In this document: positions 7,488 through 35,835 of the stretch, piece by piece
How the letters are laid out: the number at the start of each line of letters is the position of its first letter
Numbering within the stretch: the first letter of the stretch is position 1
Translations under genes and position numbers: made by a program
The notes under the pieces: model-generated
The model's database searches: none
Seen by the model: the letters and a program-made list of their open reading frames with translations, nothing else
Told to the model about the DNA's origin: nothing
Assembly (NCBI GenBank): GCA_964019425.1
Contig: OZ025780.1
Coordinates: forward strand, 1-64,000
Direction of reading: 5' to 3'
Length of the DNA: 64,000 nucleotides
From: Flectonema sp. DT1601
Lineage: Eukaryota

Positions 7488-10233
7488 TACCACCACCCCC
7501 ACGCAAGTCAAAGAAACGCCCCAACGCAAGTGCTGCCTCGGAACGTTGTTGTTTGATATTAGCGCCGTCAGGACAAATGCGAGACGGAAAATCTGCTGGA
7601 TTGCATTTTGTAGAAACCCAGTTGAGCCTATAAGTGCATTGTAGTCTATTAAGATGATTCATAATGTAATTTACTTGTCTGTTGAGTGCCATGGAACGGA
7701 CTGACATGCCCTTCTTTGTTGAGTATAAGACGGTTGTATTATCCACGTAAATATCCAAATGTGATGCTTTCGAGATCGATCGAAGCGTAGAAGTAAGAGC
7801 AGTGGCCTCAAGGACGTTGATATGCTCACTACTTTCCTTCTCAGTCCATCGTGCCCCCAGGATGTCCATCTCATAATTATGATCAAAGATCACAGCTCCC
7901 CAGCCCTTCATGGAAGCGTCGACGAAGATCATCCTAGAATCATCATCATCATCATCTCTCTTCGTTTCCCCTACATGTACGTTCCGTGTTGTTAGTACCT
8001 CCTTAGACCAGTTTGAAATTTCCTTCCTAACTGAGCTGGGGATGGGCACCACGTGTTCAGTCTGAACGACCCCACGGTTTAATGAATTCGTGACCCTGCG
8101 AAAAAACTTTAGCGCAAACCAGTATTTACCAGGATGTATGTGAGTAATTGCCGAAGCATGTAGGAGGCGACCAGCTAAGCTTTCGATCTTCTCCGCGGTG
8201 ATGTTATCGAGGCAAGTATTAAGTATCCTCTTGCGTAGCTTTTCGGCGACGGCAACAGTACACCTAGTATGGTCAAACCTTACACCAAGAAAGTCGTATT
8301 CTTTAGCGAGTTCCTGAGTTTCTTCTTGCTTCCAAGTCACGTTACAACGTCTCGCCACCTCATTTATTCTTGTTGTTGCCTCATTTACACACCCGAATGA
8401 GCCAGTTATCCTGATATTGTCAATCCAAATATCGGTAACTACCCCCCGATATGTGAAAGCAGGCTTGGCAAATGTAGGATCGCCTGCAACAGTTGCTGTT
8501 AGAGAATGCATAATCTCAGGTGCCGCCATATGTCCCATCGGCAACCTGGTTAGCTCAAACCACTCCCCTCGCTCATCCTGGAATCTGAAATATTTCCTAG
8601 AGCGCTCAGGTATGGAAACCTGGTAAAACCCCGTCTTCAAGTCCCATTGGGATGATGTCTCCCTCGTCACTTGAGAGAGGTACTGAGCAATGTGCTCCAA
8701 GGGAACCTTCGGCTTGTACCCGAGTTCGTGCATCATCAAGTTGGCCTCCTTCGTCCACAAGATGAATCGCTGCCGTGTTCCAGTTATCCGTTCTTCAAGT
8801 ATTGTAAAGGGTATTGATTCCAATATCCCGGGGCTGCTTGTTTGGGTTGCAACCCCTGCCTCTACTAGCCGGCGTGCATGCTGAGACTGCAGACAAGACT
8901 CCCTGTGACTCTTTTTATACTGATGGCTTTGGTGAGTACCTTGCCGACACGGGTTGAACGTAAGGTCCCATACCTCTTCAAACCTCCTGCGTGTCCCATC
9001 GGTCATCATCCGTTTTACCTCTTGAACGTCAATGGTCCCCACTTCCTTTACGTGTAGAGGCGTCGCCCTCTCTTCCTCGGTTGAAGGGAGGCGAGTGGTC
9101 TTCGACTTCCGAGTGAAGTTCTGCATAAGTCTCCGCGCAGTTCTTGGAATTACAAATGTTGGGTTATGCGGCTTGTGTTCAGGGAGAGAGCCAGCGACCT
9201 GTCCGACCCTGCATATCTTAACGTCGTTTCTGATATCTGCTGGTTTGCCGTTTCGTGTTTGGCTAGTCGACTTATGAGCATCAGCGGAATAACTAATCCT
9301 GTCTGTTTCTTCTCGAAAATGAACTTTATTGCACCGCGTTTTATGCTGTGAGCACTGTAATTTTCCATGCGAGAATCCTTCTTCCAAAGTCCTGTGAGCT
9401 TTGCAGTGTCGACTTTTGTTAAACGATCGAAGAATCCCAACCTCATGATGGCTCTGTATATCTCCTCCGTCCATCTTCCGGTGATTACCGCGAACCTTGA
9501 AGCCGTGTACGGATTCTCCCTCTTTCCCTTCGGAATCTGGTTCCAGTCCACAATTACTGTTAAAGGGTCGCATTGAATGAAGCTGCCCGAGGACAGCGCC
9601 GCGACCTCCCCCCAGCGAGACATTGTTTTCCAGGCAATCATTGCGGCGGTTGAAGCCCCTAGCTCCTGTGTTTGACACCATTCTTCCAGGATTCCCCTTG
9701 GGATCGGAGTTGCTTGTGACTCGGGCACCGTAGCACCGTCTGCCCTTAGGGCCACCTGAAGGCTCCTGAGGGGTTGGTTTTCCATCCCGAGGTGTTTCAT
9801 AATACCCGACAATGCCTTTGCGTAGTTTAGTAAACTTTGTGACTTCGCCCCTGTAGCGGTTACGAATAAGACCGCAGAATTTGCATCCATGGGTAGGCTC
9901 CTGTCGGTGACCCACTTCACATACCTCGACCATAATCGTTTTCTCTGGTCGATGGTAGACACCGCCCACATCTTTCTTACGATGGCGCGTACCCGCTTCT
10001 CTGCTGCCTTTATGGTGACTTCGTCTTCTGATTGAGTCCTTCTTGTTGGTCTGCGTTGCAAGATCTGTAAAGTTGCTTGCTCCATTATTCCTTTTCCTTT
10101 GACCAACTCGTCTTGCCGCATTTTGGCGATCATGCTCCCGGTTTTTTTGCTTAATAAAGTTATACTTGGCCGGGTCCAAGTAAACTTCCTTTCCCGTACT
10201 GCGATTCAATTTTTCCGCACCTGCTGGGGCCAA
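7432..10233 (-). CDS. Pol: reverse transcriptase-RNase H of element 1; the N-terminal part overlaps the YR gene in the -1 frame
   Basis: RT motifs WDLKTGFYQV, RLPMGH, IWIDNI and YDFLGV. RNase H motifs FVDASMKGWG, HINVLEA, YVDN and NPADFPSR. The frame is uninterrupted. Confidence 0.92.
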   Translation of the reverse strand: MAPAGAEKLNRSTGKEVYLDPAKYNFIKQKNREHDRQNAARRVGQRKRNNGASNFTDLATQTNKKDSIRRRSHHKGSREAGTRHRKKDVGGVYHRPEKTIMVEVCEVGHRQEPTHGCKFCGLIRNRYRGEVTKFTKLRKGIVGYYETPRDGKPTPQEPSGGPKGRRCYGARVTSNSDPKGNPGRMVSNTGARGFNRRNDCLENNVSLGGGRGAVLGQLHSMRPFNSNCGLEPDSEGKEGESVHGFKVRGNHRKMDGGDIQSHHEVGILRSFNKSRHCKAHRTLEEGFSHGKLQCSQHKTRCNKVHFREETDRISYSADAHKSTSQTRNGKPADIRNDVKICRVGQVAGSLPEHKPHNPTFVIPRTARRLMQNFTRKSKTTRLPSTEEERATPLHVKEVGTIDVQEVKRMMTDGTRRRFEEVWDLTFNPCRQGTHQSHQYKKSHRESCLQSQHARRLVEAGVATQTSSPGILESIPFTILEERITGTRQRFILWTKEANLMMHELGYKPKVPLEHIAQYLSQVTRETSSQWDLKTGFYQVSIPERSRKYFRFQDERGEWFELTRLPMGHMAAPEIMHSLTATVAGDPTFAKPAFTYRGVVTDIWIDNIRITGSFGCVNEATTRINEVARRCNVTWKQEETQELAKEYDFLGVRFDHTRCTVAVAEKLRKRILNTCLDNITAEKIESLAGRLLHASAITHIHPGKYWFALKFFRRVTNSLNRGVVQTEHVVPIPSSVRKEISNWSKEVLTTRNVHVGETKRDDDDDDSRMIFVDASMKGWGAVIFDHNYEMDILGARWTEKESSEHINVLEATALTSTLRSISKASHLDIYVDNTTVLYSTKKGMSVRSMALNRQVNYIMNHLNRLQCTYRLNWVSTKCNPADFPSRICPDGANIKQQRSEAALALGRFFDLRGGGGSRAMADRHYLVTPSPLRK
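9150..10133 (-). CDS. Tyrosine recombinase of element 1
   Basis: Catalytic R (SRWGEV), HxxR (HSIKRG), H (LAKHE) and Y (TTLRY) in the correct order. Confidence 0.92.
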   Translation of the reverse strand: MIAKMRQDELVKGKGIMEQATLQILQRRPTRRTQSEDEVTIKAAEKRVRAIVRKMWAVSTIDQRKRLWSRYVKWVTDRSLPMDANSAVLFVTATGAKSQSLLNYAKALSGIMKHLGMENQPLRSLQVALRADGATVPESQATPIPRGILEEWCQTQELGASTAAMIAWKTMSRWGEVAALSSGSFIQCDPLTVIVDWNQIPKGKRENPYTASRFAVITGRWTEEIYRAIMRLGFFDRLTKVDTAKLTGLWKKDSRMENYSAHSIKRGAIKFIFEKKQTGLVIPLMLISRLAKHETANQQISETTLRYAGSDRSLALSLNTSRITQHL

Positions 10234-11544
10234 CGGCCTGGACCTAAAAAAGCCTTCGTTGGCTTTGGTTTCGGGGTCCAGGTGTTCTTATTTTTCTTCG
10301 AAGCTTTTTGAATTGACCTGTCGATGTAGTCGTGTTGATTGGCTTCCATTTCCGTCAATACATCGCTGAGCCTGGCCCCCCGTACAACATATCCTTGTTG
10401 TACACGAAGCAGCGATAGACTCCTATTTCCCAAGCTAACCATTTCAGGCATCCCCTCCCAGGAGTTTACCTGTTCTGCCACCCTAATCCAGTCTACAAGC
10501 ATTTCGAAATATGCGAGTAGTACTCGGTCACCTGGTTTGACGGTGGTACAACCGTTGGTGTATTTAAAACGCAAGTCTCTAATGAGACCGGTCGCGTCCT
10601 CCTCAATGGCATCTTTCCATTGTAAGACATCCTTCGAGTCCTCGATTCTCTTAGTTGTAAAGAAAACCTTCGTTTGTGTTGGGGACGTCTGTAATGTGGG
10701 AGCATCCTCCGGAACATTTCTGTTTGCAATTGCCGTCAGCCTGTCCACTCGTTCGTCCGAAGCGGCAGATTGTTCGAGCCCCGTCACCGATTGAGAGGTA
10801 GACCTCTTCGCGGCATCCTCCAAACTCTTCAAGATCCTGTCGATCTTTTTATCCTGGGCTACAGCCATTTCACGATTTTCGGTCCCGCATCTTCGCCATC
10901 TCCGAATGTTGATCCCTGATCGCCGAATCAGTCATCCCAGCCAAATTGCTTGTATTCTGGCCTTGGCGAGATAATTCGTCGGCAATAATGGCGTGTCCCT
11001 GCTCCAATGCCTGTTGACGGTTTCTCACGTTAACAGTTTCATGCTCCAATACAGTCTGTCTCTGCCCCGCTGAATTCAAAGCTTGCGAGGTAACTTGTTC
11101 AAGAACCGCTTGCCTCTGCACGGTGTTTGATACCACTTGGCTCGCACCCTCCATAACATGGTGAAACTCCGTACGGGAGACGGGTAAACCCTCCGTCACC
11201 CCACATGCTCGTAGCATTTCATCGAATCTCTGCACATTCCTGTTTCGCAGATGTGAGAGCATAACTTCCTTTGGCCTCATCGCTATTCCTTGCAACGAGT
11301 CTCTCGAAACACCCAGGAGGGCCATCAACATATCATTAATGATGCTCTCAGCTTGATGCTGTACACACCATCCCCCTAAGTTCATTCTTACGTCATCCAT
11401 TTTGTATGTACCTCGTTTTAACTCCTCTTCGCCGAAAGTGCTTTTCCAAGCATCTTCCAAACTTGAAGGAAATCTAAAATCGTACGTACTTATTACAGTC
11501 GAGGGGGATGGTTGGTCGATTATCATAGGCGTTTGTTGATCCAT
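10206..11544 (-). CDS. Gag-like ORF1 of element 1, split into two ORFs (10870-11544 and 10206-10868) by an apparent 1-nt indel near 10880
   Basis: First ORF of the element, with a coiled-coil-like middle. The N-terminal YDFRFPSSL..W motif is shared with the gags of elements 2 and 3, and the C-terminal half resembles element 3 gag (LVKLG/MVSLG..L..LR.Q). Confidence 0.75.
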
Positions 11545-11828
11545 TTTAAATTATTAAATTAATTTAAAGATGCAAGAATGCCTGGAAAGGCAGATAGGCA
11601 TAAACGAATCAATCGTAATGCACTATAAAAAAGATGGAAGAAACAAGTGGTCGTATTATACTATAGGCTCGACGAATCAATCATGTTGCACTATAATAAA
11701 ATAAATGGTAAGACTGCTCACATTAAGAACTGATAAGACAATGGATTGCTACATAGAAATTTGTATCATAAGAATAAAGTGGTGAACTACAGCGCTGATC
11801 CTGAGAGATTCCCATATTGGTGTTAGGG
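11543..11828 (-). repeat. Split direct repeat A1 (5' end) of element 1
   Basis: Copy of 6916-7201. The gag ATG straddles its inner border. Confidence 0.92.
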
Positions 11829-12028
11829 TTTGCGGGTTTGCGGGTTTGCGGGTTTGCGGGTTTGCGGGTTTGCGGGTTTGCGGGTTTGCGGGTTTGCGGG
11901 TTTGCGGGTTTGCAGGTTTGCGGGTTTGCGGGTTTGCGGGTTTGCGGGTTTGCGGGTTTGCGGGTTTGCGGGTTTGCGGGTTTGCGGGTTTGCGGGTTTG
12001 CGGGTTTGCGGGTTTGCGGGTTTGCGGG
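11829..12028 (+). repeat. About 25 units of GGGTTTGC between elements 1 and 2
   Basis: Directly visible, with one GCAGG variant. Confidence 0.98.
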
Positions 12029-12219
12029 GAACCGTGCGGCACTTACGTTGTTTAATTGTACTGGAGGGAAAAGAAATAAAGCAAAACAAGGGATAGAAAT
12101 GAATAAAGCAAGAACATTGTACAAAGTGAATTGTACCATTGGTTAAACTAATTTTCCTGTAGACAGAGCGAAAGAAAGGGTTAAGCCACAAGTACTAACA
12201 GTGCAAGATTTCCAAACAT

Positions 12220-14731
12220 TCACAACGGGGTAGCGTGGCGCCGCCTGACCGTGTCCTCGTGGTGAGGCTCGGCCGGGCGCGCGCCGTCACGCGCCACCTC
12301 CACATCGCGAGTGAAGAAAGCCCTAACCGCCAGTGTGACCTCTTCCCTGTGCTTTCGTGTTTTGATTTGTGTCGGATCGACCCGTGAAGGTAGGTCAGCT
12401 GGATTCAGTTGTGATCGTACATACTGCACCGAGAACGTGATCGCCCTCCTCTGCAACTCCAGCAAAGCGCTGATGACCGCGCCGTTCAGCTCTTGCGACC
12501 GAACCGACATACCCTTCCTGGCAACCCCTACCACCGGGGTGTTGTCAATCCAGATGGCTATCGTGCAACCATCCAGCTCCGGCGACATCTGCTGCATCGT
12601 CTTGCTGAATGCTAGACCCTCCAGGATGTTAATGTGCAGCATGCACTGTTCCGCATCCCAGGAGTCCCCCATCACCACTACCTCGGCCGTCACGTCGTTC
12701 ACAACGACTCCTCCCCATCCCATCTTCGAGGCATCGCGAAGACGGAGAACTTCTGCTCCGCCCCATCAGACGGAGCGAGCATCCGTCTCGAAGCCGTCGC
12801 ACCAGCCGCCCACTCCCTGTCGAAATAGAAACCGGAACATGGACTCTGTCCCCGACCAACTTCCTCCCGGCATTCAAATTGTTCGCCAAGCGCCGGAGGA
12901 ACTTCAATGCAAACCAGTATTTTCCCGGTGTCTCCCCGGCCACCGCCGAAGCGTGCATCAACCTTCCACCCATCGACTCAAGTTGCCCAGCCGTCACATT
13001 GTCCATGTCCACACCCTGCAGCTTCCGACATATCTTCGTCGATACCTTCACCTCCGACTCCCGATGGTCGAAGTCCACCCCCAAGAAAGTGTACTTCGTC
13101 TCCGCAGTAAAGCTGTCAGCTGGTTTCCAGGTTAAACAAAAGTCACCTGCAGCCGCATCGAGGTTCGCCGTAGCTGCAAGTACCATACCAGCCTCACCTG
13201 TATACCGGATGTTGTCTATGAAGACATCAACCAGTACACCCCGCACACGCCACTCCGGCAGGACGTAAGCAGGGTCGCCGGCAGCCGCCGCGGCCAGCGT
13301 GTGCATGACCTCCGGCGCACACACATGCCCCATCGGCAACCGACAAAGTTCAAACCACGAACCCCCTTCCGTCTGAAAGCGAAAGAAAGAACGCGCTTCT
13401 TCCGGAATCTCGATCGCATAAAATCCCGTGCGAAAGTCCCGGGTACTCCCACATTCCTCCCGAACCTGGTCTAAGTACCGAGAGATGTGGTGCAGAGGTA
13501 CTTGCGCAGTGTACCTCTCTTCCAACCAGCTGTTCGCATCCTTGGTCCACAAGATAAACCTCTGGCGCAAGCCCTCGGGTTTCTCCTCCAGCACCGTGAA
13601 TGGAACATTGTTCGCCTCACCCGGACCAGTTGCCTTCCGAGCAATGCCAAACGAAGCCAGTTCTCCAGCATGTTCCTCCGAAAATGCTGACCGTCCAGAC
13701 GACCGGCCCGCCTTCCCCACCTCCGGCGAGAACGTCATCTTCCACACCTCGTCAAACCGTCTCCGTGGCTCGACATCCAACCTCCTCCGCAATCCTACAA
13801 CATCCATCACGGGCACACCACTCACATGCAAGGGAGACGCCTTCTCCTCCCGAGTCGAAGGCAACCGCGTCCTCTTCCCCCGCCTCACCAGACTGTGCTG
13901 CGTTCCAATCCTCACAGCAGCTTCGTCGCATGCCAAGTCCCCAATGCCCTGGCAGTACTCACCGGGTTCGACGCATACCGGAGGGTTGTGGACGACACCC
14001 CTTCCCCGCCTTCTGTGTGCTTGAGAAGACGTGATACCAGGGACGTTGACGTCAACCTTCCTTCCTCTAGCGCCTGCATCAGGACGCCGGCCGCCCCTCG
14101 TTTCACCGAGTGCGCCGTGAAGCCCTTCATGACCGGGTCTCTCCGCCACAGATCCACCAGCCTTTCCGATGTGACAGCCGTCAGTTGTTCGAACGGAGAG
14201 AGCTCCCCCACCAACCGAGCGATCACCCCCACCAGATCGCCCTAGATCACCACCCATCTTGAGGGAACATACGGGTCCGCCCGACGATGCTTCGGTGTCA
14301 TCCCCCAATCGATGATCACCTCGTCCATCTCGATCAAGATGAACTGTTGGGAAGTCAGCTTCTGTACCTCTCCCCACCTTGACGCCGTCTTCCAGCACAC
14401 CAGAGCCGCCAACTTCACGTCTCGTGCTTGTTCGTTCGCCCACCGGACCAGCGTTTCCTTTCCGATCGGCTGAGCTTGCTTGACAGGAACCGCCGCCCCT
14501 TGTGCCCGGAGCGCGGCCGCCAAGCTGAGGAGCGGCTGCCGTTCCAACCCCAGGTGTCGGAACACACCGGACAGCGCTTTTGCGTAATTCAGCTGCCCCT
14601 GTGGTGTGACGCTCGTTGCCAACACGAACAGTGCCGCCGCCTCGGCCGTAACCGGTATGTGCTGAGCCGCCGCCCAACCTTGCAGCCTGCCCCACAGGTT
14701 GCGCCGTTTCTGTGAAGTCTCGGCCGCCCAC
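12220..14731 (-). pseudogene. RT-RNase H of element 2, frameshifted in the 12720-12830 interval
   Basis: RT motifs RDFRTGFYAI, RLPMGHVCAPE, VFIDNI and YTFLGV in ORF 12629-14731. The RNase H part (MGWGG, HINILEG, WIDN, NPADLPSR) is in a separate frame, 12220-12723. Confidence 0.88.
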
Positions 14732-14904
14732 ATTTGTGCGACCACACCGCCCAACCGTTCCAAGGCCTCGTCGAGGTTGACAGCCCCTTCCTGTGCCAAC
14801 GGCCGTTCCCCGGCCCCCGCCACGTGCTCCAGAACCACTTGCCCGAACACCGACGGCATCATCGCCCCCTTGTCGGCCAAATGTCCTTCCCTCATACTTT
14901 CCAT
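13912..14904 (-). pseudogene. Tyrosine recombinase of element 2, with an in-frame TAG at 14242-14244
   Basis: SRWGEV, HSVKRG, LKH and TTLRY motifs. WVVI* aligns with WAVIQ in element 3, suggesting CAG>TAG. Confidence 0.88.
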
Positions 14905-15375
14905 GTATGTTCTTCGTTGCTCCTAACGCACTTTTGGCTGCCCAGCATCTCCTGCTAAGCCCACCACGGTCTGCCTTCCGAATCCAGCCCCCCGAACCGG
15001 AACAACGACCCTTCGCCTCCTTCCAACCAGATCGGGTTTCACCCCCACTTCCGGCAGTACGACCTCTCTGACCCCCTGGCCAGACATGTCCACTCCCCGA
15101 AGCGTGGCCTCCCCCACCTGGCTGGGCAAGCTTGTTTTGTCCTTCCTTCGAGCTTCCGTTCCTGGAACTGAAATCCCTCCGAACCTCCGGCCGTCCCGAG
15201 CCTCGTCCACCCGAATCCGACCCGAGCCGCCCACATCGACCAACAACCCTCCAACCGGTTTGGGAAAGTCCACCACCCCAAGAGACACGACCCCTCCGAC
15301 CTGTTCCCGGTCGGGCATGTCTATCTCTCGGACCGGAACCCCTCCAACTCGGTTGGGAACCGCCAGAGCTGACCG

Positions 15376-17184
15376 TCAGTAGCCCTGGCCCCGACCGTTT
15401 TTTGCCTTTGGCTTTGGCTTTGGCGCCGATGATGCAATACTCTGACCCCCAAAGCCGGAATGTGTCTTCTTCCCTACCACCTTGTCCGCAGCTTTCCTCG
15501 CTGCCGCCGTTTCCGGAGTCAGGGTCTCCTCCTTGAGCTTATTTTCGTAACTCCTTGCAGCAGCTTCGCTTGCCTCTTGGTACTGGTAGTACTCAAGCAA
15601 CTTGAGGATTTCCAGCGAGGACTTCTCCGGTCCCGCCGTGACCACCGTAACTGCTAAAGCCGCTAGTCTCTTCGCGTTCTCCCGCGTCCACTGTGCCCTT
15701 CCCGAGTACCTCCTCGCGATCGCCCACTGCAGATTCTCGCGGTCCGTCGGGCCACCAGCAGCAAACCCAGCCCAGTTTTGCCGGTTACCAGCTGCCTCCG
15801 TCGAAGTCAGCTCGCTTCTCTCCCGATATTCCTCCCAGTGCCCCGGCAACCATCCATCTCCTCCGAGGCCAAACTCCCGGAGGTGACTCGCATCCCCCAG
15901 CGCCGCCGCGATCACCCGCTCCTGCTCCACCGCGATCACCACTCCCCTCTCAGAACCGCACAGGATCTTCATTCCGACCCGCCACTCCGGTCTCACGACT
16001 TCCTTCTGCCGTTTGCTATCCAAAATCTCCGAGATCTTCGAGACTGCCTCCGATAACAATGCATCCTTACCGCTATCAGAAGATGCCCCTACCGGCACTA
16101 CCGATGATTGTTGCTGTTGCTGTAGCTGCATCTGTTGCTGTAGTTGCATCTGTTGCTGCTGCTGTTGTTGCTGTTGTTGCAGTTGCGCCTTCAAATCTGC
16201 TAACTCCTTCGCCTGCTGATGGCCCTGGGCTAACATCATCTCACGGAACTCCGCCGACCCCGACCGCTCCTGGCTTCGCTGTTGCTGTTGCTGGGCCTGT
16301 TGTTTTGATACCGTCTGCCGAAGTCTCGCAAGCTCTTCGATACTCTTCTCGGAGATGCCTTGTTGCTCCGCCAGCTGTGCGCGGAGTTGGGTGACTTGTT
16401 TGTCGCTTCTCTGCTGTTGCCCCTTTTGCCTTCGGGACAATTCATCCTGCTGTCCCAGCAAGATGCTCTGGTGGTGTTGTTGTTCTTGCTGCTGCTTCTC
16501 CTGCTGCTCCAACCGTCCAACCTGCGATCGCACCACCGCCTCCACCGATCCTTGACGCTGAGCCACTTGCTGCAACGCCTGTCCCGTCTCCGCCTTCACT
16601 CCAGCCAAACGCCGATCCGCTCCCAGCGCGTACTCCTGGGTGGCTTGATAAAGCCCACCCAATCCTTCCTCCGAGGTCTGGTGCCTCGCTGCCAACCCGC
16701 GAAGCACTTCATCCGCCTCCACCGTAGTGACGTAGTCACTCATCGCCACGTCCATCGCCCCGTCGACGTCGTAAAAAGTTTCGCCCGTCGGAGGCGAAAG
16801 TAGCCGGACTTTGTTCGCGGATGTCGGGCCGTCCAAGTCCGACATCCCCACCAAAAACGTACTAAACTGCGTTGGCCTTTCTTCAGCCAACACAGTCAGC
16901 AAGACAAAGACACCCCGTGCCGATGCCCTGCCGATCACTGCCCTCTCGGTCTTCAAAAAACGAGCCAGCAGCTCGTCCGCAAACCACCTCTCACCACTCA
17001 TGTCGTCCGCCTTTTCAGACAGCATCCACCAGAACCTTCCTTCTGCTTCCGACATACCTATCGCCTTAAGCGCGGCTTCCTTCCGCGCTCTCAAATCTAC
17101 GTGGCCTTTTCTTGGGTGTGCCAACCCGGTGCCTTGCACCCACAACGACAGAAGACTCGTCGGCATCGAGAATTCATACGACAT
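15376..17184 (-). CDS. Gag-like ORF1 of element 2 (Gln-rich coiled coil); likely start MSYEFSMP
   Basis: Long ORF in the first position. The YEFSMPTSL..W motif matches the other two gags. The ORF track extends it to 17340 from an upstream GTG. Confidence 0.75.
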   Translation of the reverse strand: MSYEFSMPTSLLSLWVQGTGLAHPRKGHVDLRARKEAALKAIGMSEAEGRFWWMLSEKADDMSGERWFADELLARFLKTERAVIGRASARGVFVLLTVLAEERPTQFSTFLVGMSDLDGPTSANKVRLLSPPTGETFYDVDGAMDVAMSDYVTTVEADEVLRGLAARHQTSEEGLGGLYQATQEYALGADRRLAGVKAETGQALQQVAQRQGSVEAVVRSQVGRLEQQEKQQQEQQHHQSILLGQQDELSRRQKGQQQRSDKQVTQLRAQLAEQQGISEKSIEELARLRQTVSKQQAQQQQQRSQERSGSAEFREMMLAQGHQQAKELADLKAQLQQQQQQQQQQMQLQQQMQLQQQQQSSVVPVGASSDSGKDALLSEAVSKISEILDSKRQKEVVRPEWRVGMKILCGSERGVVIAVEQERVIAAALGDASHLREFGLGGDGWLPGHWEEYRERSELTSTEAAGNRQNWAGFAAGGPTDRENLQWAIARRYSGRAQWTRENAKRLAALAVTVVTAGPEKSSLEILKLLEYYQYQEASEAAARSYENKLKEETLTPETAAARKAADKVVGKKTHSGFGGQSIASSAPKPKPKAKNGRGQGY

Positions 17185-17563
17185 AATTTCAAACTTAAAT
17201 GTACAAGTATGAAAAAACCCTGTGATAAAGCGTAAAGAATGACAAAATGGAAAAGTAAAACGATGAAGAACTTTCTGATATATTGAGGGACACATTCCCA
17301 AGGATAACTTGTAATAATGCAAGCTTGTTTTATAACACACAGAATTTGCACATCTGAAACAATTGTTAAATGTAAAATGCCTTATCTAGAGACAGTGTCT
17401 GCAGCCAGGTCGGCGCAACACTTTTTGCCCATGATCGGACTCGTCTAAATTGAGGAAAAATGATCGAAGATGAGAACTCAAACTTCGTTGCACACTAGAG
17501 CAGAAAAGACAAAGGATGATATTACGTAATTTAAAACTGCCATTTGCAAGGTTCCCAAGGAAA

Positions 17564-17631
17564 GGTTTGCGGGTTTGCGGGTTTGCGGGTTTGCGGGTTT
17601 GCAGATTTGCGGGTTTGCGGGTTTGCGGGTT
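17564..17631 (+). repeat. Short GGGTTTGC array
   Basis: Directly visible. Confidence 0.95.
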
Positions 17632-23463: not shown

Positions 23464-24223
23464 TGCTGATTCTCTTCCCGCAAGCAAATTTTAGCTGCTT
23501 ACTTTTTTCCTGCAAACAAATTTAAGCTGCCAATTTTCTTCAGTAGGAAGTAAGTAAGATTTATTTTTGCCTAAGGAAAAATGCTGGATTTTTGTGCCCG
23601 AGCAGGTCTAAAAAAGATGGGTAACCATTTTCTTAAAGTATAAAATGTGATGAAAATTCTTTTTTAGTATGGTTTTGAAATTTAAGTGTATGGTTGCCAG
23701 TTTAGTAGGTAGTTAAAAAAGAATTCTTCAGAAGAAATCTTCCCTTTATAATATTTTCTGAAGGATTTATTTTTTTCTACAGATCTCCTAAAAAAGATGG
23801 GAACACATAGTTGATCTATCCAAAAGTCTTCATAAATCCCTGTTAACCATTTTCTTAAAATATAAAAAGTGATGAGAAAGAAATTTTGTTAGTAAGTGGT
23901 ATGGTTTTGAAATTTAGGTGTATGGCTGCCAATTTAGTTAGCAAGAATTTTCTTTTTGAAATAATTTTTTCCTTCTTAATGAGTTTTGGGTTTTAGGTGC
24001 CAAGCTGTGAAAAAGCAATCTTTGATTTCATTTCTTTTTTGGTAAAGGGTCTTTCCTACACAAATAGTTTCAGAACTAACCATTCTTTACAAAACCCAAA
24101 ATGGCTGTAAACCGTCCAGTTCGACCCTGGGTGAGGGCATTTTTGTTTTTTCTTGATTCTTTTTCAGGAGGTTGGCCTTTATTAGTGGCTCCCCCCCCTT
24201 GGGGGGGGTTGGGGGGGGGGGGG

Positions 24224-26197: not shown

Positions 26198-26924
26198 GGG
26201 GGGGGGGGGCTGCGTTCCGCCATCCCATAGTTCTTCCCACATTTCTATTTTATTGGAAATAATGAACGATAACCTTATTAATATAACTAAATTCCTATAT
26301 TCCCATCCCAGGGTCGCACACATTGCAGATACAGGTTCGATAAACCTGTTGTAAAATACTTCCAAATGTAACAAACAGATAACCTAAGCCACATATCCAA
26401 TCATCATAAACCTAGCTGTCGTTTTCGTGCTAGCATATTAATATAACAACAACTACAGATATCTTTCAGAAAAACAAAAACAAAGGACTTGATAAAACAG
26501 GGTGCAGTGTGCATTTTCAGCTAAGGGAGGACATTTTTCATTTGTCGTCCCGTTGGGACAGAAAAGTAATAAATAAATAAAAAATTGCGAAAAAAAAAGA
26601 AATTGCTTATATATAACGCTTATTTATTTTTATTTTATTCTTTTTTCTCATGTTTGATTATCTCTTCATATTATTTATTTTTTTTTTTCTGCCTCCCCCT
26701 TAATCCTGTTCGTTTCTTTGAAACAAAAATTCATTTGAATATTATTCCTTGGTCAGCATCTTTCATTGTCGCCCTTTGGGCCTGTTAAAAAAAGAAAAAA
26801 AAAAAAAAAAGAAAGTTTACATCGGGAATAGGGCAGGAGCCAAAAGCCCCCAGTCCGTTACTTCCCACCTTTTCGAAAACTTATTTATAAATAAAAATTG
26901 CAGAAAAGTAATAATAATAAAAAG

Positions 26925-27001
26925 TTGCGATATCCCAGGGGTAGTGGTATAACCCTCGCCCTGGGGCTGGGCGATCGCTGGTTCGACCCCTGCCACTGCA
27001 A
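26925..27001 (+). pseudogene. tRNA-like segment 1 of the Helitron-like unit (also 33913-33990; internally deleted at 20750-20801)
   Basis: A-box-like GTAGTGGTA, stem TCGCCC-TGGGGCT-GGGCGA and B box GGTTCGACCCC. Confidence 0.45.
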
Positions 27002-27167
27002 TAACCCATCGCGCCCGTACACGCAATTAGTTCAAATCCCGCGCCCGAAGGGCGTCCAGGGTAGGCACCTGGTACGTTAAGACTGGAGAGAAGGGAAAAT
27101 GGAAGGATTTCCATAAAGAGGCTAAGAACACACAAATAAATAAATAAATAAAAAAAAAAAAATCCCA

Positions 27168-27245
27168 GGGCTGCACAGCCGAGTGGATACCTTAAATCTC
27201 TTAAATCTCTTCGGTAGCCGTGGCAAGGGTTCAATTCCCAGGCAC
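27168..27245 (+). pseudogene. tRNA-like segment 2 (degenerate, tRNA-Leu/Ser-like; also 20978-21047 and 34088-34156)
   Basis: A box AGCCGAGTGG and B box GGTTCAATTCC, followed by a T-rich stretch. Confidence 0.45.
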
Positions 27246-29814
27246 ATTCTTTGTGTTTTTCAACCAGAAAAATTAGTAAGAAGAAAGTAGCAAGGAAAAG
27301 GGTACAAAATTGGACTTAACTTAACGCGAGCGAAGCGAGCGTAAAGTTTAGTTCAAATTTGTACCCTGGACGGGTACCTAGCCAGGGAATAAAAACAGAC
27401 GTGACTTGGTTGTAAAAATAATGTTTGTTCAGAAAGCTTAAAAAAAAAGAGTTGTGTGCGAGCAACGCGAGCCTGGAAGGGGTATCTCTAGTGCGGGTTT
27501 GCGGGTTTCTCCTATATAATTGTCAGCATTGGGGATATTTTGGGTTCTGAGGAGATCCACCAAGTCCTGGGCCAGGTACCCAGGCCAGGCCTCACCTAAT
27601 TACACACTAATTCTTCTTTGCATTCCCGCAAGAAGGTCTGGTTCTAAGTGCAACATGAGTGTTGACTGGTGCCACGCATTACGGAAAGAAAAGTAGCGTT
27701 GCATATTGACCTGTGGCAAGTCGGCGCTACCAAATGACAGTCTGATGATCCACGGCGGGCGTTTGCAGAAAGAAATTTACCTTTGTCTACGGAATTTTTT
27801 TTTTTTTTTTTACCACTTTTTGCGCCACTCACCTCCAAAAAAACATGAGTACATCTTTTTTTATGGTTATCTCTCGATCTATCGGCCCCGAAAAGTCTTC
27901 ACAAATTTCTGTGTGGAGAAAAAAGTTTTGCAGTTGTTTGCCAGTCAAAACTTACGCATGTAAGCTGGCCAGGCCTAGCTACTTCCGTACTGGGAATGGG
28001 GCTTCTGTTTCTTCCTGCTAGCAGGCCTGGTACTAAGTACTACGTAATAGTGCCACGCATTACAGGAATAATATTAGGTTGCTCAGAAGTGCTATGTAAG
28101 CTGGCCAGGCCTAGCTACTTCCGTACTGGGAATGAGGCTTCTGTTTCTTCCTGCTAGCAGGCCTGGTGCTAAGTGCTACGTAATAGTGTCACGCATTACA
28201 GGAATAATATTAGGTTGCCCAGAAGTGCTATGTAAGCGCCAGGCCTAGCTACTTCCGTACTGAGAATGAGGCTTCTGCTACGTAATAGTGTCACGCATTA
28301 CAGGAATAATATTAGGTTGCTCAGAAGTGCTATGTAAGCTGGCCAGGCCTAGCTACTTCCGTACTGAGAATGAGGCTTCTGTTTCTTCCTGCTGGCAGGC
28401 CTGGTGCTAAGTGCTACGTAATAGTGTCACGCATTACAGGAATAATATTAGGTTGCTCAGAAGTGCTATGTAAGCTGGCCAGGCCTAGCTACTTCTGTAC
28501 TGAGAATGGGGCTTCTGTTTCTTCCTGCTGGCAGGCCTGGTGCTAAGTGCTACGTAATAGTGTCACGCATTACAGGAATAATATTAGGTTGCTCAGAAGT
28601 GCTATGTAAGCTGGCCAGGCCTAGCTACTTCCGTACTGGGAATGAGGCTTCTGTTTCTTCCTGCTAGCAGGCCTGGTGCTAAGTGCTACGTAATAGTGTC
28701 ACGCATTACAGGAATAATATTAGGGCCTAGCTACTTCCGTACTGAGAATGAGGCTTCTGCTACGTAATAGTGTCACGCATTACAGGAATAATATTAGGTT
28801 GCTCAGAAGTGCTATGTAAGCTGGCCAGGCCTAGCTACTTCCGTGCTGGGGATGAGGCTTCTGTTTCTTCCTGCTAGCAGGCCTGGTGCTAAGTGCTACG
28901 TAATAGTGTCACGCATTACAGGAATAATATTAGGGCCTAGCTACTTCCGTACTGAGAATGAGGCTTCTGCTACGTAATAGTGTCACGCATTACAGGAATA
29001 ATATTAGGTTGCTCAGAAGTGCTATGTAAGCTGGCCAGGCCTAGCAACTTCCGTACTGAGAATGAGGCTTCTGTTTCTTCCTGCTGGCAGGCCTGGTGCT
29101 AAGTGCTACGTAATAGTGTCACGCATTACAGGAATAATATTAGGTTGCTCAGAAGTGCTATGTAAGCTGGCCAGGCCTAGCTACTTCCGTACTGAGAATG
29201 GGGCTTCTGTTTCTTCCTGCTGGCAGGCCTGGTGCTAAGTGCTACGTAATAGTGTCACGCATTACAGGAATAATATTAGGTTGCTCAGAAGTGCTATGGC
29301 TGGCAGGCCTGGTGCTAAGTGCTACGTAATAGTGTCACGCATTACAGGAATAATATTAGGTTGCTCAGAAGTGCTATGTAAGCTGGCCAGGCCTAGCTAC
29401 TTCCGTACTGAGAATGAGGCTTCTGTTTCTTCCTGCTGGCAGGCCTGGTGCTAAGTGCTACGTAATAGTGTCACGCATTACAGGAATAATATTAGGTTGC
29501 TCAGAAGTGCTATGTAAGCTGGCCAGGCCTAGCTACTTCCGTACTGGGAATGAGGCTTCTGTTTCTTCCCGCAAGCAGGCCTGGTGCTAAGTGCTACGTG
29601 CTAAGTGTTGAATGGTGTCACGCATTACGGGAAGAAAGGTAGAGTGTTGCATGTTAACCTGTTGCAGGTTGGCACTACCAAATGACCTGGTGACCCACGG
29701 GGGGGCGTTTGCGGAAAGAGAATTGCTGCTTTTGCAGTTATTTGCCTTTGTCACGGGATTTTTTTTTTTTTTTTTTTTACTGCTTTTTGTGCCACTCACC
29801 TCCAAGAAATCATG

Positions 29815-32452
29815 CTGCTTATTTTCTTCCCGCAAGCAAATTTTGGCTGCTTATTTTCTTCCCGCAAGCAAATTTTAGCTGCTTATTTTTTTCTTTCAGG
29901 CAAATTTTAGCTGCTTATTTTTTTCTTGCAAGCAAATTTTAGCTGCCTATTTTCTTCCCGCAAGCAAATTTTGGCTGCTTATTTTCTTCCCGCAAGCAAA
30001 TTTTAGCTGCTTATTTTTTTCTTTCAGGCAAATTTTAGCTGCTTATTTTTTTCTTTCAGGCAAATTTTAGCTGCTTATTTTCTTCCCGCAAGCAAATTTT
30101 AGCTGCTTATTTTCTTCCCGCAAGCAAATTTTGGCTGCTTATTTTCTTCCCGCAAGCAAATTTTGGCTGCTTATTTTCTTCCCGCAAGCAAATTTTAGCT
30201 GCTTATTTTTTTCTTTCAGGCAAATTTTAGCTGCTTATTTTTTTCTTGCAAGCAAATTTTAGCTGCCTATTTTCTTCCCGCAAGCAAATTTTGGCTGCTT
30301 ATTTTCTTCCCGCAAGCAAATTTTAGCTGCTTATTTTTTTCTTTCAGGCAAATTTTAGCTGCTTATTTTTTTCTTTCAGGCAAATTTTAGCTGCTTATTT
30401 TCTTCCCGCAAGCAAATTTTAGCTGCTTATTTTCTTCCCGCAAGCAAATTTTGGCTGCTTATTTTCTTCCCGCAAGCAAATTTTAGCTGCTTATTTTCTT
30501 CCCGCAAGCAAATTTTAGCTGCTAATTTTCTTCCCGCAAGCAAATTTTGGCTGCTTATTTTCTTCCCGCAAGCAAATTTTAGCTGCTTTTTTTTTTCTTT
30601 CAGGCAAATTTTAGCTGCTTATTTTTTTCTTGCAAGCAAATTTTAGCTGCTAATTTTCTTCCCGCAAGTAAATTTTAGCTGCTTATTTTCTTCCCGCAAG
30701 CAAATTTTAGCTGCTAATTTTCTTCCCGCAAGCAAATTTTGGCTGCTTATTTTCTTCCCGCAAGCAAATTTTAGCTGCTTATTTTCTTCCCGCAAGCAAA
30801 TTTTAGCTGCTTATTTTCTTCCCGCAAGCAAATTTTGGCTGCTTATTTTCTTCCCGCAAGCAAATTTTAGCTGCTTATTTTCTTCCCGCAAGCAAATTTT
30901 AGCTGCTAATTTTCTTCCCGCAAGCAAATTTTGGCTGCTTATTTTCTTCCCGCAAGCAAATTTTAGCTGCTTATTTTTTTCTTTCAGGCAAATTTTAGCT
31001 GCTTATTTTTTTCTTGCAAGCAAATTTTAGCTGCCTATTTTCTTCCCGCAAGCAAATTTTGGCTGCTTATTTTCTTCCCGCAAGCAAATTTTAGCTGCTT
31101 ATTTTTTTCTTTCAGGCAAATTTTAGCTGCTTATTTTTTTCTTTCAGGCAAATTTTAGCTGCTTATTTTCTTCCCGCAAGCAAATTTTAGCTGCTTATTT
31201 TCTTCCCGCAAGCAAATTTTGGCTGCTTATTTTCTTCCCGCAAGCAAATTTTGGCTGCTTATTTTCTTCCCGCAAGCAAATTTTAGCTGCTTATTTTTTT
31301 CTTTCAGGCAAATTTTAGCTGCTTATTTTTTTCTTGCAAGCAAATTTTAGCTGCCTATTTTCTTCCCGCAAGCAAATTTTGGCTGCTTATTTTCTTCCCG
31401 CAAGCAAATTTTAGCTGCTTATTTTTTTCTTTCAGGCAAATTTTAGCTGCTTATTTTTTTCTTTCAGGCAAATTTTAGCTGCTTATTTTCTTCCCGCAAG
31501 CAAATTTTAGCTGCTTATTTTCTTCCCGCAAGCAAATTTTGGCTGCTTATTTTCTTCCCGCAAGCAAATTTTAGCTGCTTATTTTCTTCCCGCAAGCAAA
31601 TTTTAGCTGCTAATTTTCTTCCCGCAAGCAAATTTTGGCTGCTTATTTTCTTCCCGCAAGCAAATTTTAGCTGCTTTTTTTTTTCTTTCAGGCAAATTTT
31701 AGCTGCTTATTTTTTTCTTGCAAGCAAATTTTAGCTGCTAATTTTCTTCCCGCAAGTAAATTTTAGCTGCTTATTTTCTTCCCGCAAGCAAATTTTAGCT
31801 GCTAATTTTCTTCCCGCAAGCAAATTTTGGCTGCTTATTTTCTTCCCGCAAGCAAATTTTAGCTGCTTATTTTTTTCTTTCAGGCAAATTTTAGCTGCTT
31901 ATTTTTTTCTTGCAAGCAAATTTTAGCTGCTTATTTTCTTCCCGCAAGCAAATTTTAGCTGCTTATTTTCTTCCCGCAAGCAAATTTTGGCTGCTTATTT
32001 TCTTCCCGCAAGCAAATTTTAGCTGCTTATTTTCTTCCCGCAAGCAAATTTTGGCTGCTTATTTTCTTCCCGCAAGCAAATTTTAGCTGCTTTTTTTTTT
32101 CTTTCAGGCAAATTTTAGCTGCTTATTTTCTTCCCGCAAGCAAATTTTAGCTGCTAATTTTCTTCCCGCAAGCAAATTTTAGCTGCTTATTTTCTTCCCG
32201 CAAGCAAATTTTGGCTGCTTATTTTCTTCCCGCAAGCAAATTTTAGCTGCTAATTTTCTTCCCGCAAGCAAATTTTGGCTGCTTATTTTCTTCCCGCGAG
32301 CAAATTTTAGCTGCTTATTTTTTTCTTTCAGGCAAATTTTAGCTGCTTATTTTTTTCTTGCAAGCAAATTTTAGCTGCTAATTTTCTTCCCGCAAGCAAA
32401 TTTTGGCTGCTTCTTTTCTTCCCGCAAGCAAATTTTAGCTGCTAATTTTCTT
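29815..32452 (+). repeat. 32-bp tandem minisatellite CAAATTTTAGCTGCTTATTTTCTTCCCGCAAG (shorter arrays at 19210-19500 and 22530-23500)
   Basis: Directly visible. Period 32, with recurring variant units. Confidence 0.95.
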
Positions 32453-34365
32453 CCGTCTCACAAAGTAAAGTATAAAATGTGATGAAAATTCTTTTTAGTA
32501 TGGTTTTGAAATTTAAGTGTATGGTTGCCAATTTAGTAGGTAGTTAAAAAAAAATTCTTCAGAAAAAATCTTTCCTTTATAATATTTTCTGAAAGATTTA
32601 TTTTTTTCTACAGATTTCCTAAAAGAGATGGGAACACATAGTTGATCTATCCAAAAGTCTTCATAAATTCCTGTTAACCATTTTCTTAAAATATAAAAAG
32701 TGATGAGAAAGAAATTTTGTTAGTAAGTGGTATGGTTTTGAAATTTAGGTGTATGGCCGCCAATTTAGTTAGCAAAAATTTGCTTTTTGAAATAATTTTT
32801 TCCTTCTTAATGAGTTTTGGGTTTTAGGTGCCAAGCTGTGAAAAAGCAATCTTTGATTTCATTTCTTTTTGGGTAAAGGGTCTTTCCTACACAAATAGTT
32901 TCAGAACTAACCATTCTTTACAAAACCCAAAATGGCTGTAAACCGTCCAGTTCAACCTTGGGTGAGGGCATTTTTGTTTTTTCTTGATTCTTCTTCAGGA
33001 GGTTGGCCTTTATTAGTGGCTCCCCCCCCTTGGGGGGGGTTGGGGGGGGGGGGCTGCGTTCCGCCATCCCATAGTTCTTCCCACATTTCTATTTTATTGG
33101 AAATAATGAACGATAACCTTATTAATATAACTAAATTCCCATATTCCCATCCCAGGGTCGCACACATTGCAGATACAGGTTCGATAAACCTGTTGTAAAA
33201 TACTTCCAAATGTAACAAACAGATAACCTAAGCCACATATCCAATCATCATAAACCTAGCCGTCGTTTTCGTGCTAGCATATTAATATAACAACAACTAC
33301 AGATATCTTTCAGAAAAACAAAAACAAAGGACTTGATAAAACAGGGTGCAGTGTGCATTTTCAGCTAAGGGAGGACATTTTTCATTTGTCGTCCCGTTGG
33401 GACAGAAAAGTAATAAATAAATAGAAAATTGCGAAAAAAAAAAGAAATTGCTTATATATAACGTTTATTTATTTATTTTTATTTTATTTTTTTTTTTCAT
33501 GTTTGATTATTTCCTCTTCATATTACTTTTTTTTTTTTTTTTTCTGCCTCTCCCTTAATCCTGTTCGTTTCTTTGAAACGAAAATTCATTTGAATATTAT
33601 TCCTTGGTCAGCAACCATCATTGTCGCCCTTTGGGCCTGTTAAAAAAAATAAAAAATAAAAAGAAAGTTTACATCGGGAATAGGGCAGGAGCCAAAAGCC
33701 CCCAGTCCGTTACTTCCCACTTTATCGAAATTATTCGTTGGCCAGCATCTTTCATTGTCGCCCTTTGGGCCTGTTAAAAAAAAAAAAAAAAAAAAAAAGA
33801 AAGTTTACATCGGGAATAGGGCAGGAGCCAAAAGCTCCCAGTCCGTTACTTCCCACCTTTTCGAAAACTTATTTATAAATAAAAATTGCAGAAAAGCAAT
33901 AATAATAAGAAGTTGCGATATCCCAGGGGTAGTGGTATAACCCTCGCCCTGGGGCTGGGTGATTGCTGGTTCGACCCCCTGCCACTGCAATAACCCATCG
34001 CGCCCGTACACGCAATTAGTTCAAATCCCGTGCCCGAAGGGCGTCCAGGGTAGGCACCTGGTAGACTTAAAAAAAAAGAAAATCCCAGGGCTGCACAGCT
34101 GAGTGGATACCTTAAATCTCTTCGGTAGCCGTGGCAAGGGTTCAATTCCCAGGCACATTTTTTGTGTTTTTCAACCAGAAAAATTAGTAAGAAGAAAGTA
34201 GCAAGGAAAAGGGTACAAAATTGGACTTAACTTAACGCGAGCGAAGCGAGCGTAAAGTTAAGTTCAAATTTGTACCCTGGACGGGTACCTAGCTAGAATT
34301 CATTCAGGTAATTTTCCACCAAGCTTAGCACCGGAAAGAAATAATCAAAGGAATCAGACAGAAAA

Positions 34366-35835
34366 GTGTATGATTCCGAAGTTGGAAAAATGAACAAAAC
34401 AACAGACATTTTTTATATATTCTTTAGCCTTCTATTTTTTCAAAAAGAAATTCTTTATACAGCTCGATCACTTCTTTCTCTCACACTCACGCCACTTGTT
34501 GAGTTTACATTCCCTGCTGCCTTGAAGAATGTATGGGAGAAAAAGACAGGGAATCCGGTACCTACAGAGAGTGAAATGATTGATTTGGATACAGCAAAAG
34601 CAGATATCCCGTTTGAAGTGGACCTCAATCAGCTGAGGAATGATACATCGCTTAGGGAGATGGTAAGGGGGACACTTGCCATCTCTTTGGGGATGCCGCA
34701 AGGATCATTGGCGACGGTCCCAATAACACATGCAGTTGTGTTATTGGGTCTGCTGTCAAGGGTAAATCGAGGATTGGTAGCAGAAAAAGCCGCGAAGGTT
34801 GGAGAGCGGCTGTCAAGGGGGGAGAACCCCCGTCTCGTGTCGTATGATGACGCCAACGATGCGATGGGCAGTCTGCAGGAGGATGCAGCCTTACTGCGTC
34901 AACAGGCGCAGCAGGCATGTTCAGACAATGCCGAAGCAACGAGGGTGTTAGAAAGTCGGACAGAGGCAACCTTTTCTGGAGTGGGTCAGAGGTTTGAATC
35001 GGTTGCCAGGTACAGGGAAAACACGGCTGAAGAGATGGGGTCGATAAGGACGACCATCGAAGATTTTACAATGAGACAGCAGCAACAGCAACAACAAACC
35101 GAGACTGTAATGCAGTCGCTAATGGCGGAACTCGTTTCGCTAAAAACACGGGTAGAAAGACAAGAGACACGACCACAGCAACACGAAGCAGTGAAGATGC
35201 CGATGCCACCGCCACCACCGCCACTATCACATCAGCCACCGATGCCGATGCCACCGCCACTATCACATCAGCCACCAGTGGGGATGCCACCTCAGCCATT
35301 CCAGCCACCGGTGATACAACAGAATACTCAGCCTGAACCTGATCATGAAGAGCACCTAGAACTGATAACTGACCCGTCATGTGCAAAGGAGGTCAAGGCA
35401 TGGGAGGAAATCCTTGAAGCGAAGGAGGCGGCGACACTAGTGATGAAGCTTGATGGCCGATATGTTTCCGGTCTAAAATATGGTCTGGGAGGGGACTTAT
35501 TGGTTGAAAAATTTGAGAACCTCTCAAACTTCCTTTTTGGTATGGAAAGAGTGACAGGCTGGACGCAGGTTCCTCACTTGGTGAAGTTGGGGGATGATTT
35601 GTTGAGACAGTTAAGGTTTCAACACTTTTTCTGTACAGACGGTACAAAGCGGTCGGAGCTTCAGGAGCAACTACTGATAGCATCCGAAGATCCTGTAGAA
35701 AAGGCGAATGCCTTGATAGTAAAAAAGAAGAGAGCACGCCCACCAACCTTTGTAAAGAAACTGAATGTGGGTAACCGCTTTCAGTTCAGACCGAAGGGAA
35801 ACGCCGGGGGGGGCTCACGTCTACAGGCGAAGTGA
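34366..35835 (+). CDS. Gag-like ORF1 of element 3 (true start probably near 34489)
   Basis: VEFTFPAAL..W motif, Q- and P-rich linker, and a C-terminus similar to element 1 gag. Confidence 0.75.
   Translation: MYDSEVGKMNKTTDIFYIFFSLLFFQKEILYTARSLLSLTLTPLVEFTFPAALKNVWEKKTGNPVPTESEMIDLDTAKADIPFEVDLNQLRNDTSLREMVRGTLAISLGMPQGSLATVPITHAVVLLGLLSRVNRGLVAEKAAKVGERLSRGENPRLVSYDDANDAMGSLQEDAALLRQQAQQACSDNAEATRVLESRTEATFSGVGQRFESVARYRENTAEEMGSIRTTIEDFTMRQQQQQQQTETVMQSLMAELVSLKTRVERQETRPQQHEAVKMPMPPPPPPLSHQPPMPMPPPLSHQPPVGMPPQPFQPPVIQQNTQPEPDHEEHLELITDPSCAKEVKAWEEILEAKEAATLVMKLDGRYVSGLKYGLGGDLLVEKFENLSNFLFGMERVTGWTQVPHLVKLGDDLLRQLRFQHFFCTDGTKRSELQEQLLIASEDPVEKANALIVKKKRARPPTFVKKLNVGNRFQFRPKGNAGGGSRLQAK

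Follow-up and report, generated by a model that had tools for sequence, protein, structure and literature searches.

Three tyrosine recombinase (YR) retrotransposons lie in a 64,000-nucleotide stretch of DNA from Flectonema sp. DT1601 (contig OZ025780.1 of assembly GCA_964019425.1, positions 1 to 64,000; hereafter the window), each with gag, YR and reverse transcriptase (RT)/RNase H genes in that order (Table 1), and their overlapping genes raise the question of how all of the proteins are made. The original prediction for this DNA held that Pol is produced as a Gag-Pol fusion by programmed -1 frameshifting at a slippery heptamer near the end of gag. This stands as the best reading, supported by the conservation of the signal and by a -1 frame free of stops, but it is incomplete. 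It had been missed that the YR open reading frame (ORF) comes in frame 0 after the gag stop. This ORF is nested in the alternative frame of pol, and its frame-0 position means that its expression needs a second explanation. It is tentatively proposed that the last 40 or so bases of gag in VIPER elements would act as a three-way switch, where termination yields Gag, slipping by -1 yields Gag-RT-RNase H and readthrough of a conserved, leaky UGA yields Gag-recombinase, all from one mRNA, with the signal conserved from diplonemids to Trypanosoma cruzi and with the related TATE elements routing the slip into their recombinase.

The heptamers are where they had been placed, T_TTT_TTA in element 1, A_AAA_AAC in element 2 and G_GGA_AAC in element 3. 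All three are in X_XXY_YYZ phase with gag and shortly before its TGA, as had been claimed, starting 43, 25 and 37 nucleotides (nt) ahead of it and leaving gaps of 36, 18 and 30 nt between heptamer and stop (elements 1, 2 and 3, respectively). The gag/pol overlaps are of 82, 163 and 61 nt, each closing in the TGA. As read from the sequence, the junctions have the make-up of a canonical -1 frameshift signal, with an in-phase X_XXY_YYZ inside the overlap and a -1 frame open to the target. Three heptamers at the same position had been taken to argue against chance, and this view is upheld: the chance of an in-phase canonical heptamer in all three overlaps is 2.8e-5 at the gag-body rate, 1.4e-4 at each element's own rate and about 3e-4 by codon shuffles (the product of 0.19, 0.059 and 0.025, with element 1 at 0.19).

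In all three elements the -1 frame is indeed open from the heptamer into RT, running without a stop from 79, 160 and 58 nt ahead of the gag stop to 2774, 2747 and 2681 nt beyond it and encoding RT. That some 670 nt of this frame in element 2 are absent from the ORF track fits with an intact relative, in which the predicted start corresponds to 14731, 666 nt beyond the heptamer. Across the YR core there are no -1-frame stops in element 1 (10.1 expected), element 3 (6.9 expected) or the part of the YR core examined in element 2 (2.8 expected), nor in the related loci L003 (13.3 expected), L002 and L011 (5.8 expected in each), while the +1 frame has the number of stops expected. The first -1-frame AUG is 1121 nt past the gag stop in element 2 and 1313 nt past it in element 3. 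The lack of such an AUG for more than 1.1 kb in these two elements, with the stop-free -1 frame across the YR, indicates that this frame is entered at the end of gag, either by a slip or by a restart on the NTG codon that overlaps the TGA.

In Gag, a heptamer can be recognised by the dipeptide that it encodes, and relatives of the Gag proteins were compared on this basis, with codons inferred from residues. A Gag profile search gave 75 matches, which are representatives of 50%-identity clusters; 56 rows with complete tails were kept, 19 fused, cut or long-tailed rows were dropped, and a 51-row set excludes a further 5 redundant or own-family rows. K-N or G-N is present within the last 20 residues of 47 of the 56 Gags (shuffled mean 23, maximum 34; 8% of body windows), with a peak of 25 of the 47 at position -8. 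Between -13 and -7, G-N or K-N is found in 41 of the 51 Gags, where tail-preserving shuffles have a mean of 6.5 and a maximum of 15 and shifted windows yield 6/51 and 3/51. The residue preceding G-N has a codon able to end in G in all 41 G-N cases (0/41 unable, P about 0.001), a bias that fits the heptamer since G_GGA_AAC needs a codon ending in G before G-N, and the residue following it has a G-starting codon in 40/41. Three of ten Gag representatives looked up are Diplonema papillatum proteins, with G-N at -8.

At the DNA level, 12 relative loci (L001 to L012) were fetched, 4 of which hold a gag junction (L001, L002, L003 and L011). The metagenome scan gave 10 loci, 3 with a gag junction, the others being fragments (L004, L005) or, for L006 to L010, short sequences or apparent members of another YR group; the YR profile gave two loci in genome contigs, L012 being without a gag junction, and the RT profile matched nothing in the genome contigs. 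Two scans of viral contigs gave no relatives. The sole in-phase canonical heptamer in the 783 gag codons of L003 sits in its 43-nt overlap, and the heptamer of L001 is A_AAA_AAC. The VIPER-type elements of loci L011 and L012 come from the bins of two bacterial genomes, where they probably represent eukaryotic contamination.

Published VIPER and TATE copies were compared by eye, not by program, in the supplement of PMC6681497, the TATE file being covered in part. An in-phase heptamer is present 7 to 14 codons ahead of the TGA in all ten VIPER entries (one Bodo, three Crithidia and six T. cruzi, from 5 families), four of the six T. cruzi entries being checked as motif matches only. The YR is in frame 0 after the gag stop in all six VIPER entries read through, and the -1 frame can be followed to RT in the Bodo and first Crithidia entries and, for T. 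cruzi, through protein P0167, which extends from the -1 frame of the heptamer into RT. All four TATE entries examined also have an in-phase heptamer at the gag end, from which the -1 frame enters the YR ORF, and a TAA or TAG stop; the Bodo gag frame among the TATE entries is short or broken. In total, the canonical heptamer is present in 10 of the 12 VIPER-type families with a visible junction, and the predicted frameshift signal is family-wide, conserved well beyond the window. Extended to the gag ends of the family, of VIPER and of TATE, the original prediction is sustained in most members, with L001, L002 and L011 as departures that are considered below.

The hairpin reported downstream of the element 2 heptamer was recovered, with a 7-nt spacer and a 9 base pair (bp) stem (z -1.95), and there is a possible 4-bp second stem. 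A stimulatory structure 5 to 9 nt downstream is predicted in element 2, in L003 (z -4.5), in L011 (a strong hairpin of -29 kcal/mol) and perhaps in L001, and perfect stems of 9 to 11 bp appear 7 nt past the heptamer in T. cruzi VIPER and two TATEs of the same supplement. Rfam gave no match within 6600-64000.

The gag stop also appears to be conserved in kind. It is TGA in 11 of 12 families (6/7 loci run by program and 5/5 published VIPER families by eye) and in 0/4 TATEs, where by eye no frame-0 ORF follows, and the YR's own stop is TGA in just 1/7 loci. The starts of Pol predictions point to TGA as the gag stop too, 10 of 13 long ones beginning with a residue pattern that fits NTG-A, compared with 0/12 of those that start inside the YR (one ambiguous row in each set). 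An A at codon position 2 of the last Gag residue was seen in 46/56 Gags, against a background of 0.32.

Most ribosomes would, in the mechanism proposed, stop at the TGA and release Gag. Some would slip -1 at the heptamer, aided in many members by the stem-loop 5 to 9 nt downstream, and would then read a linker of 350 to 600 residues, which is the alternative frame of the YR, before reaching RT. That a fraction of ribosomes makes the Gag-RT-RNase H fusion in this way is considered highly probable. Occasional readthrough of the conserved TGA, to give Gag-YR, would be the least certain step.

Several observations weigh against the frameshift. Neither L002 (A_AAC_TTC) nor L011 (G_GGG_GGA), 2 of the 4 fetched junction loci, has a canonical heptamer, and L001 has one -1-frame stop ahead of RT (12.7 expected). 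Downstream of the heptamers of elements 1 and 3 there is no hairpin or simple pseudoknot better than shuffles, and no stimulatory structure is predicted in L002. A further in-phase heptamer of element 1, overlooked previously, lies beyond the overlap, at -223, and shows that such motifs arise by chance in gag and that single matches prove little. No G-N, K-N, F-L or N-F is present near the end of 10 of the 56 Gag tails, five of which have G-K, compatible with G_GGA_AAA. The inference of codons from residues limits the protein-tail test, and the Gag relatives and junction families share ancestry, so their counts are not independent trials.

Pol might instead be made by termination and reinitiation, with ribosomes stopping at the gag TGA and restarting on the overlapping -1-frame NTG, as in AUGA-type junctions, to give free Pol, the G-N or K-N of the tail being then a protein motif. 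A TGA necessarily creates this codon and the TGA is conserved, gene callers start the same 10 of 13 long Pol predictions compatibly with it, and the open -1 frame would be accounted for as well. By eye, the overlapping codon is a true AUG in T. cruzi and in one Crithidia copy, and there are -1-frame AUGs 4 nt (L011) and 40 nt (L003) before the stop, but in the window elements the codon is only TTG, CTG and GTG. Reinitiation would leave unexplained the three heptamer classes (G-N, K-N and F-L) at one position, the codon that can always end in G before G-N and the stems with a 7-nt spacer, and TATE gags end in TAA or TAG yet retain the heptamer. The heptamers, their falling into three classes and the stems all make sense under a slip but not under a restart on NTG; the slip is preferred, and reinitiation is regarded as improbable. 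More improbable still is that RT comes from a trans-spliced or subgenomic mRNA of its own, with the heptamers as unused relics. Trans-splicing can release monocistronic mRNAs from one precursor (as described in the part of PMC6681497 covered), and -1-frame AUGs are present well upstream of RT in T. cruzi and element 1, but there would be no reason for 350 to 600 open -1-frame codons before RT, mostly AUG-free in elements 2 and 3, or for the persistence of heptamers in lineages less than 35% identical in RT. As chance matches in Gag tails rich in lysine and glycine, the heptamers are hardly credible. These tails are of low complexity, the codon-shuffle P for element 1 is high, and element 1 and L002 carry in-phase heptamers elsewhere in gag, but neither the tail-preserving shuffles nor the shifted windows come near the count observed.

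For the YR, even with the -1 step accepted, two routes are to be weighed. According to the part of PMC4615788 covered, UGA and upstream adenines favour readthrough, and both are seen here; YR production by occasional readthrough of the TGA as Gag-YR, rather than from its own AUG, is given a slightly better than even chance. Expression from an AUG of the YR's own, either because ribosomes re-initiate past gag or because the YR has a trans-spliced mRNA to itself, falls a little short of that and is a serious contender. The base after the TGA is A in 9/11 cases, where the same source has C as the leaky base and ranks A low, T. cruzi, L002 and L003 have an AUG directly after the stop and L011 has one two codons later, and in 6/7 loci the first AUG past the stop shares the frame of the YR. 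The nearest named relatives are from D. papillatum and T. cruzi, and trypanosomatid mRNAs are trans-spliced (PMC6681497, in part). Frame-0 selection upstream of the YR AUG gave no clear signal either way in element 1 compared with protein P0002 or in the element 3 repeats, and the frame-0 stop-free stretch before the YR AUG has a joint P of only 0.016. Such an AUG does not account for the preferences for TGA and upstream A, nor for the AUG-free, stop-free frame-0 codons past the stop, 241 in element 3 and, by eye, about 110 in Bodo VIPER, and the first AUG of element 3 is out of frame. A crude scan of pyrimidine tracts as possible splice acceptors failed to tell the cases apart. The frame-0 position of the YR was rejected as independent proof of readthrough, as a pol that is -1 to gag and overlaps the YR already entails it.

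By their sequences, the window elements are VIPER-type YR retrotransposons, not TATE, DIRS1 or Ngaro. The nearest named relatives of their RT are from D. papillatum, which makes a flagellate akin to it the probable host, and the RT/RNase H is 33% identical over 506 amino acids (aa) to T. cruzi P0167 (E 2e-70), a protein named only as from T. cruzi and matched by eye to published VIPER. In a FastTree tree of 46 RT rows, which included no labelled TATE, the window families, D. papillatum proteins and P0167 are in a 35-row clade (support 95) inside a 42-row clade (support 100), apart from four outgroup rows. The YR was not recognised in Pfam and PDB sequence searches; its predicted fold matches Cre instead (E 2e-6 for element 1). 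The UniRef cluster of P0167, the T. cruzi VIPER Pol, is misnamed TOR kinase.

VIPER of T. cruzi, Crithidia fasciculata and Bodo saltans (PMC6681497) shares with the window elements the order gag, YR, RT/RNase H with the YR overlapping pol, shares with element 1 the split direct repeats A1...B1 A2 B2, and in the published copies, by eye, has the same YR motifs, heptamer, TGA and frames. It differs in the CCHC box of T. cruzi VIPER gag, which the window gags lack, and in the telomere-like repeats that house elements 1 and 2 at a fixed register, as has been described for TATE. The TATE elements (Leishmania braziliensis and others, in the part of PMC6681497 covered) are like element 1 in their split direct repeats, like elements 1 and 2 in their telomeric-repeat insertion and like all three in their in-phase gag-end heptamer. 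In TATE the -1 frame leads to the YR ORF with RT behind, whereas in the window the frame-0 YR lies nested inside pol; its gag ends in TAA or TAG, and its YR motifs are, by eye, unlike those of the window, which match VIPER. Ngaro also has split direct repeats, and for it -1 frameshifting has been proposed, from the end of RT/RNase H into the YR (Poulter and Butler 2015, as quoted in PMC13003380). The Ngaro YR ORF is downstream of RT/RNase H, unlike the window, where the shift would be from gag into pol and the YR comes before RT. DIRS1-like elements have inverted terminal repeats, an internal complementary region, a methyltransferase domain and RT before the YR (from the part of PMC3266345 covered), whereas the window elements have direct repeats, no methyltransferase match and the YR before RT. 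The Gag-Pol frameshifting of retroviruses, Ty3/Gypsy and PEG10, as presented in the accessible part of PMC5009743, places the same X_XXY_YYZ in a short overlap of gag and pol, with a stem downstream after a short spacer, and favours the same motifs, but the window elements are without long terminal repeats, integrase or detected protease, the -1 product would first cross a whole second gene, and a possible frame-0 readthrough product would start at the same stop.

The mechanism is known elsewhere as Gag-Pol -1 frameshifting, and what would be new is its occurrence in the VIPER-like group, with an unusual nested layout and a possible second recoding event. VIPER was described as three ORFs without recoding (Ribeiro et al. 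2019, PMC6681497, in the parts covered), and the original impression that frameshifting was undescribed for VIPER and TATE agrees with the literature as covered, where no such proposal was found, although Poulter and Butler 2015 or Lorenzi et al. 2006 could hold an earlier mention. Frameshifting in VIPER or TATE was not found in the accessible portions of PMC12278014, PMC13003380, PMC10161547, PMC3783388, PMC8226300, PMC7192593, PMC9210276, PMC3266345, 10.1101/2022.06.16.496473 or 10.1101/2021.01.25.428050, nor by a term search of the available supplements of PMC6681497, covering the two largest in part, and the frameshifting review PMC5009743 does not, in the part covered, name DIRS, VIPER, Ngaro or tyrosine recombinase.

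The papers on YR retrotransposons, as far as covered, do not address how overlapping genes are expressed. The finding offers a precise test for the VIPER-like group, including the potentially active VIPER of T. cruzi and TATE of Leishmania, with exact junction peptides predicted, which in the window would be ...PKGN followed by RRGG, ...KAKN followed by RSGP and ...KAFL followed by RSRP. If it is correct, the three-ORF annotation would be wrong and Pol would be a Gag fusion, and some of the D. papillatum gene models in which these ORFs are joined would probably be artefacts. Organisms whose gene control is mainly post-transcriptional would also gain candidate nuclear -1 frameshift signals. Were readthrough also to occur, two recoding events would depend on one short signal. 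The D. papillatum gene models P0038, P0040, P0041, P0046 and P0047 fuse Gag, YR and RT, probably via predicted introns across the recoding sites. In TATE, by eye, the YR ORF starts with a region of H-W, D and Q...C motifs (PMC6681497 supplement, in part). In the two entries checked, RT is again -1 to the YR, which suggests a second recoding site. The H-W, D and Q...C motifs are reminiscent of a Ulp1-type cysteine protease.

Table 1. Features of the window associated with the three VIPER-type elements.
Feature	Position	Strand	Remarks
Telomere-like array, 8-nt unit TGCGGGTT, 826 copies	1..6607	.	right-hand flank of element 1
Element 1, VIPER-type YR retrotransposon, split direct repeats	6608..11825	-	embedded in telomere-like repeats
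Element 1 repeat A1	11543..11825	-	99.6% identity to A2 (7198-6916)
Element 1 repeats B1 (7487-7202), A2 (7198-6916) and B2 (6893-6608)	6608..7487	-	
Element 1 gag	10206..11544	-	two parts, 11544-10870 and 10931-10206
Element 1 slippery heptamer TTTTTTA	10245..10251	-	encodes F-L, kept in P0064
Element 1 YR ORF	9150..10205	-	frame 0, immediately past gag TGA (10208-10206); first ATG 10133
Element 1 pol ORF, -1 frame	7432..10287	-	YR-overlapping linker, RT, RNase H; uninterrupted
Element 2, VIPER-type	12029..17563	-	telomere-like repeats on either side (11826-12028 and 17564-17632)
Element 2 gag ORF	15376..17385	-	terminates TGA-CGG
Element 2 slippery heptamer AAAAAAC	15397..15403	-	
Element 2 predicted stem-loop	15362..15389	-	7 nt past heptamer, gag stop inside loop; possible 4-bp second stem
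Element 2 YR frame (frame 0)	13912..15375	-	in-frame stops at 14925 and 14244
Element 2 pol, -1 frame until about 12818	12220..15538	-	includes RT
Element 3, VIPER-type	34297..39379	+	truncated pol; 3' repeat block locally inverted
Element 3 gag ORF	34345..35835	+	stop TGA (35833-35835)
Element 3 slippery heptamer GGGAAAC	35796..35802	+	
Element 3 YR ORF, frame 0	35836..37626	+	first ATG at 36559, preceded by 241 stop-free codons
Element 3 pol, -1 frame	35775..38722	+	first ATG 1313 nt past gag stop; intact relative P0006

All three copies in the window are damaged, and intact relatives exist for each (P0064, P0024 and P0006). In element 1 there is a frame change in gag near 10883, with both parts covered by the intact 445-aa P0064; this relative rules out the break as a programmed event. 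The element 2 YR stop at 14925 is Gln in the relative P0044, and its pol has two frame changes, near 12818 and 12738, ahead of RNase H, with the intact P0024 98% identical. The pol of element 3 has a frame change near 38489 and is cut off near 38720, so that RNase H is missing. Within its 241 stop-free codons before the YR ATG are 11.5 copies of a 63-nt repeat (35882-36608), open in the YR and pol frames alike, and P0006 differs in copy number.

The split direct repeats of element 1 are in the order A1 ... B1 A2 B2, with CCC present at both element junctions and at the B1/A2 junction. No repeated ends were found in element 2, each end being present once only, as though excision at the junction core had removed an A2-B2 block. 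Elements 1 and 2 both end TTCCCC, joined to the same phase of the telomere-like repeat, so that two VIPER-type elements occupy TGCGGGTT repeats in the same register and have the CCC core in common, even though it is TATE for which targeting of telomeres has been described. The flanks are tandem repeats and the junctions share the CCC core, so a target-site duplication is hard to judge. Element 3 carries A and B repeat blocks, the 3' block being inverted; its inverted repeats were considered as DIRS-type inverted terminal repeats and rejected, as they are rearranged A/B blocks. A solo A+B unit of element 3, which resembles the SIRE form of VIPER, is present at 39587-39953 beside a degenerate telomere-like run (39485-39515), with more partial copies at 39511-39587 and 40109-40232.

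Elsewhere in the window, a 44-nt inverted match to the element 1 B repeat (46394-46437) is possibly a remnant of another element, as may be a pair of 114-nt imperfect inverted repeats 1.6 kb apart (24307-26104). Between elements 2 and 3 (17633-34296) are satellite arrays with 32-nt and 136-nt units and several copies of a dispersed 1-1.8 kb repeat. Three ORFs of 148-247 aa, without a Pfam match, are found in ORF-poor surroundings at 42869-45379. The region 47499-64000 contains two to three tandem copies of a unit of about 5.7 kb, which encodes a 398-aa ORF of no Pfam family (57959-56766, 63611-62412), and also holds a cysteine-rich ORF of 286 aa (52948-52088).

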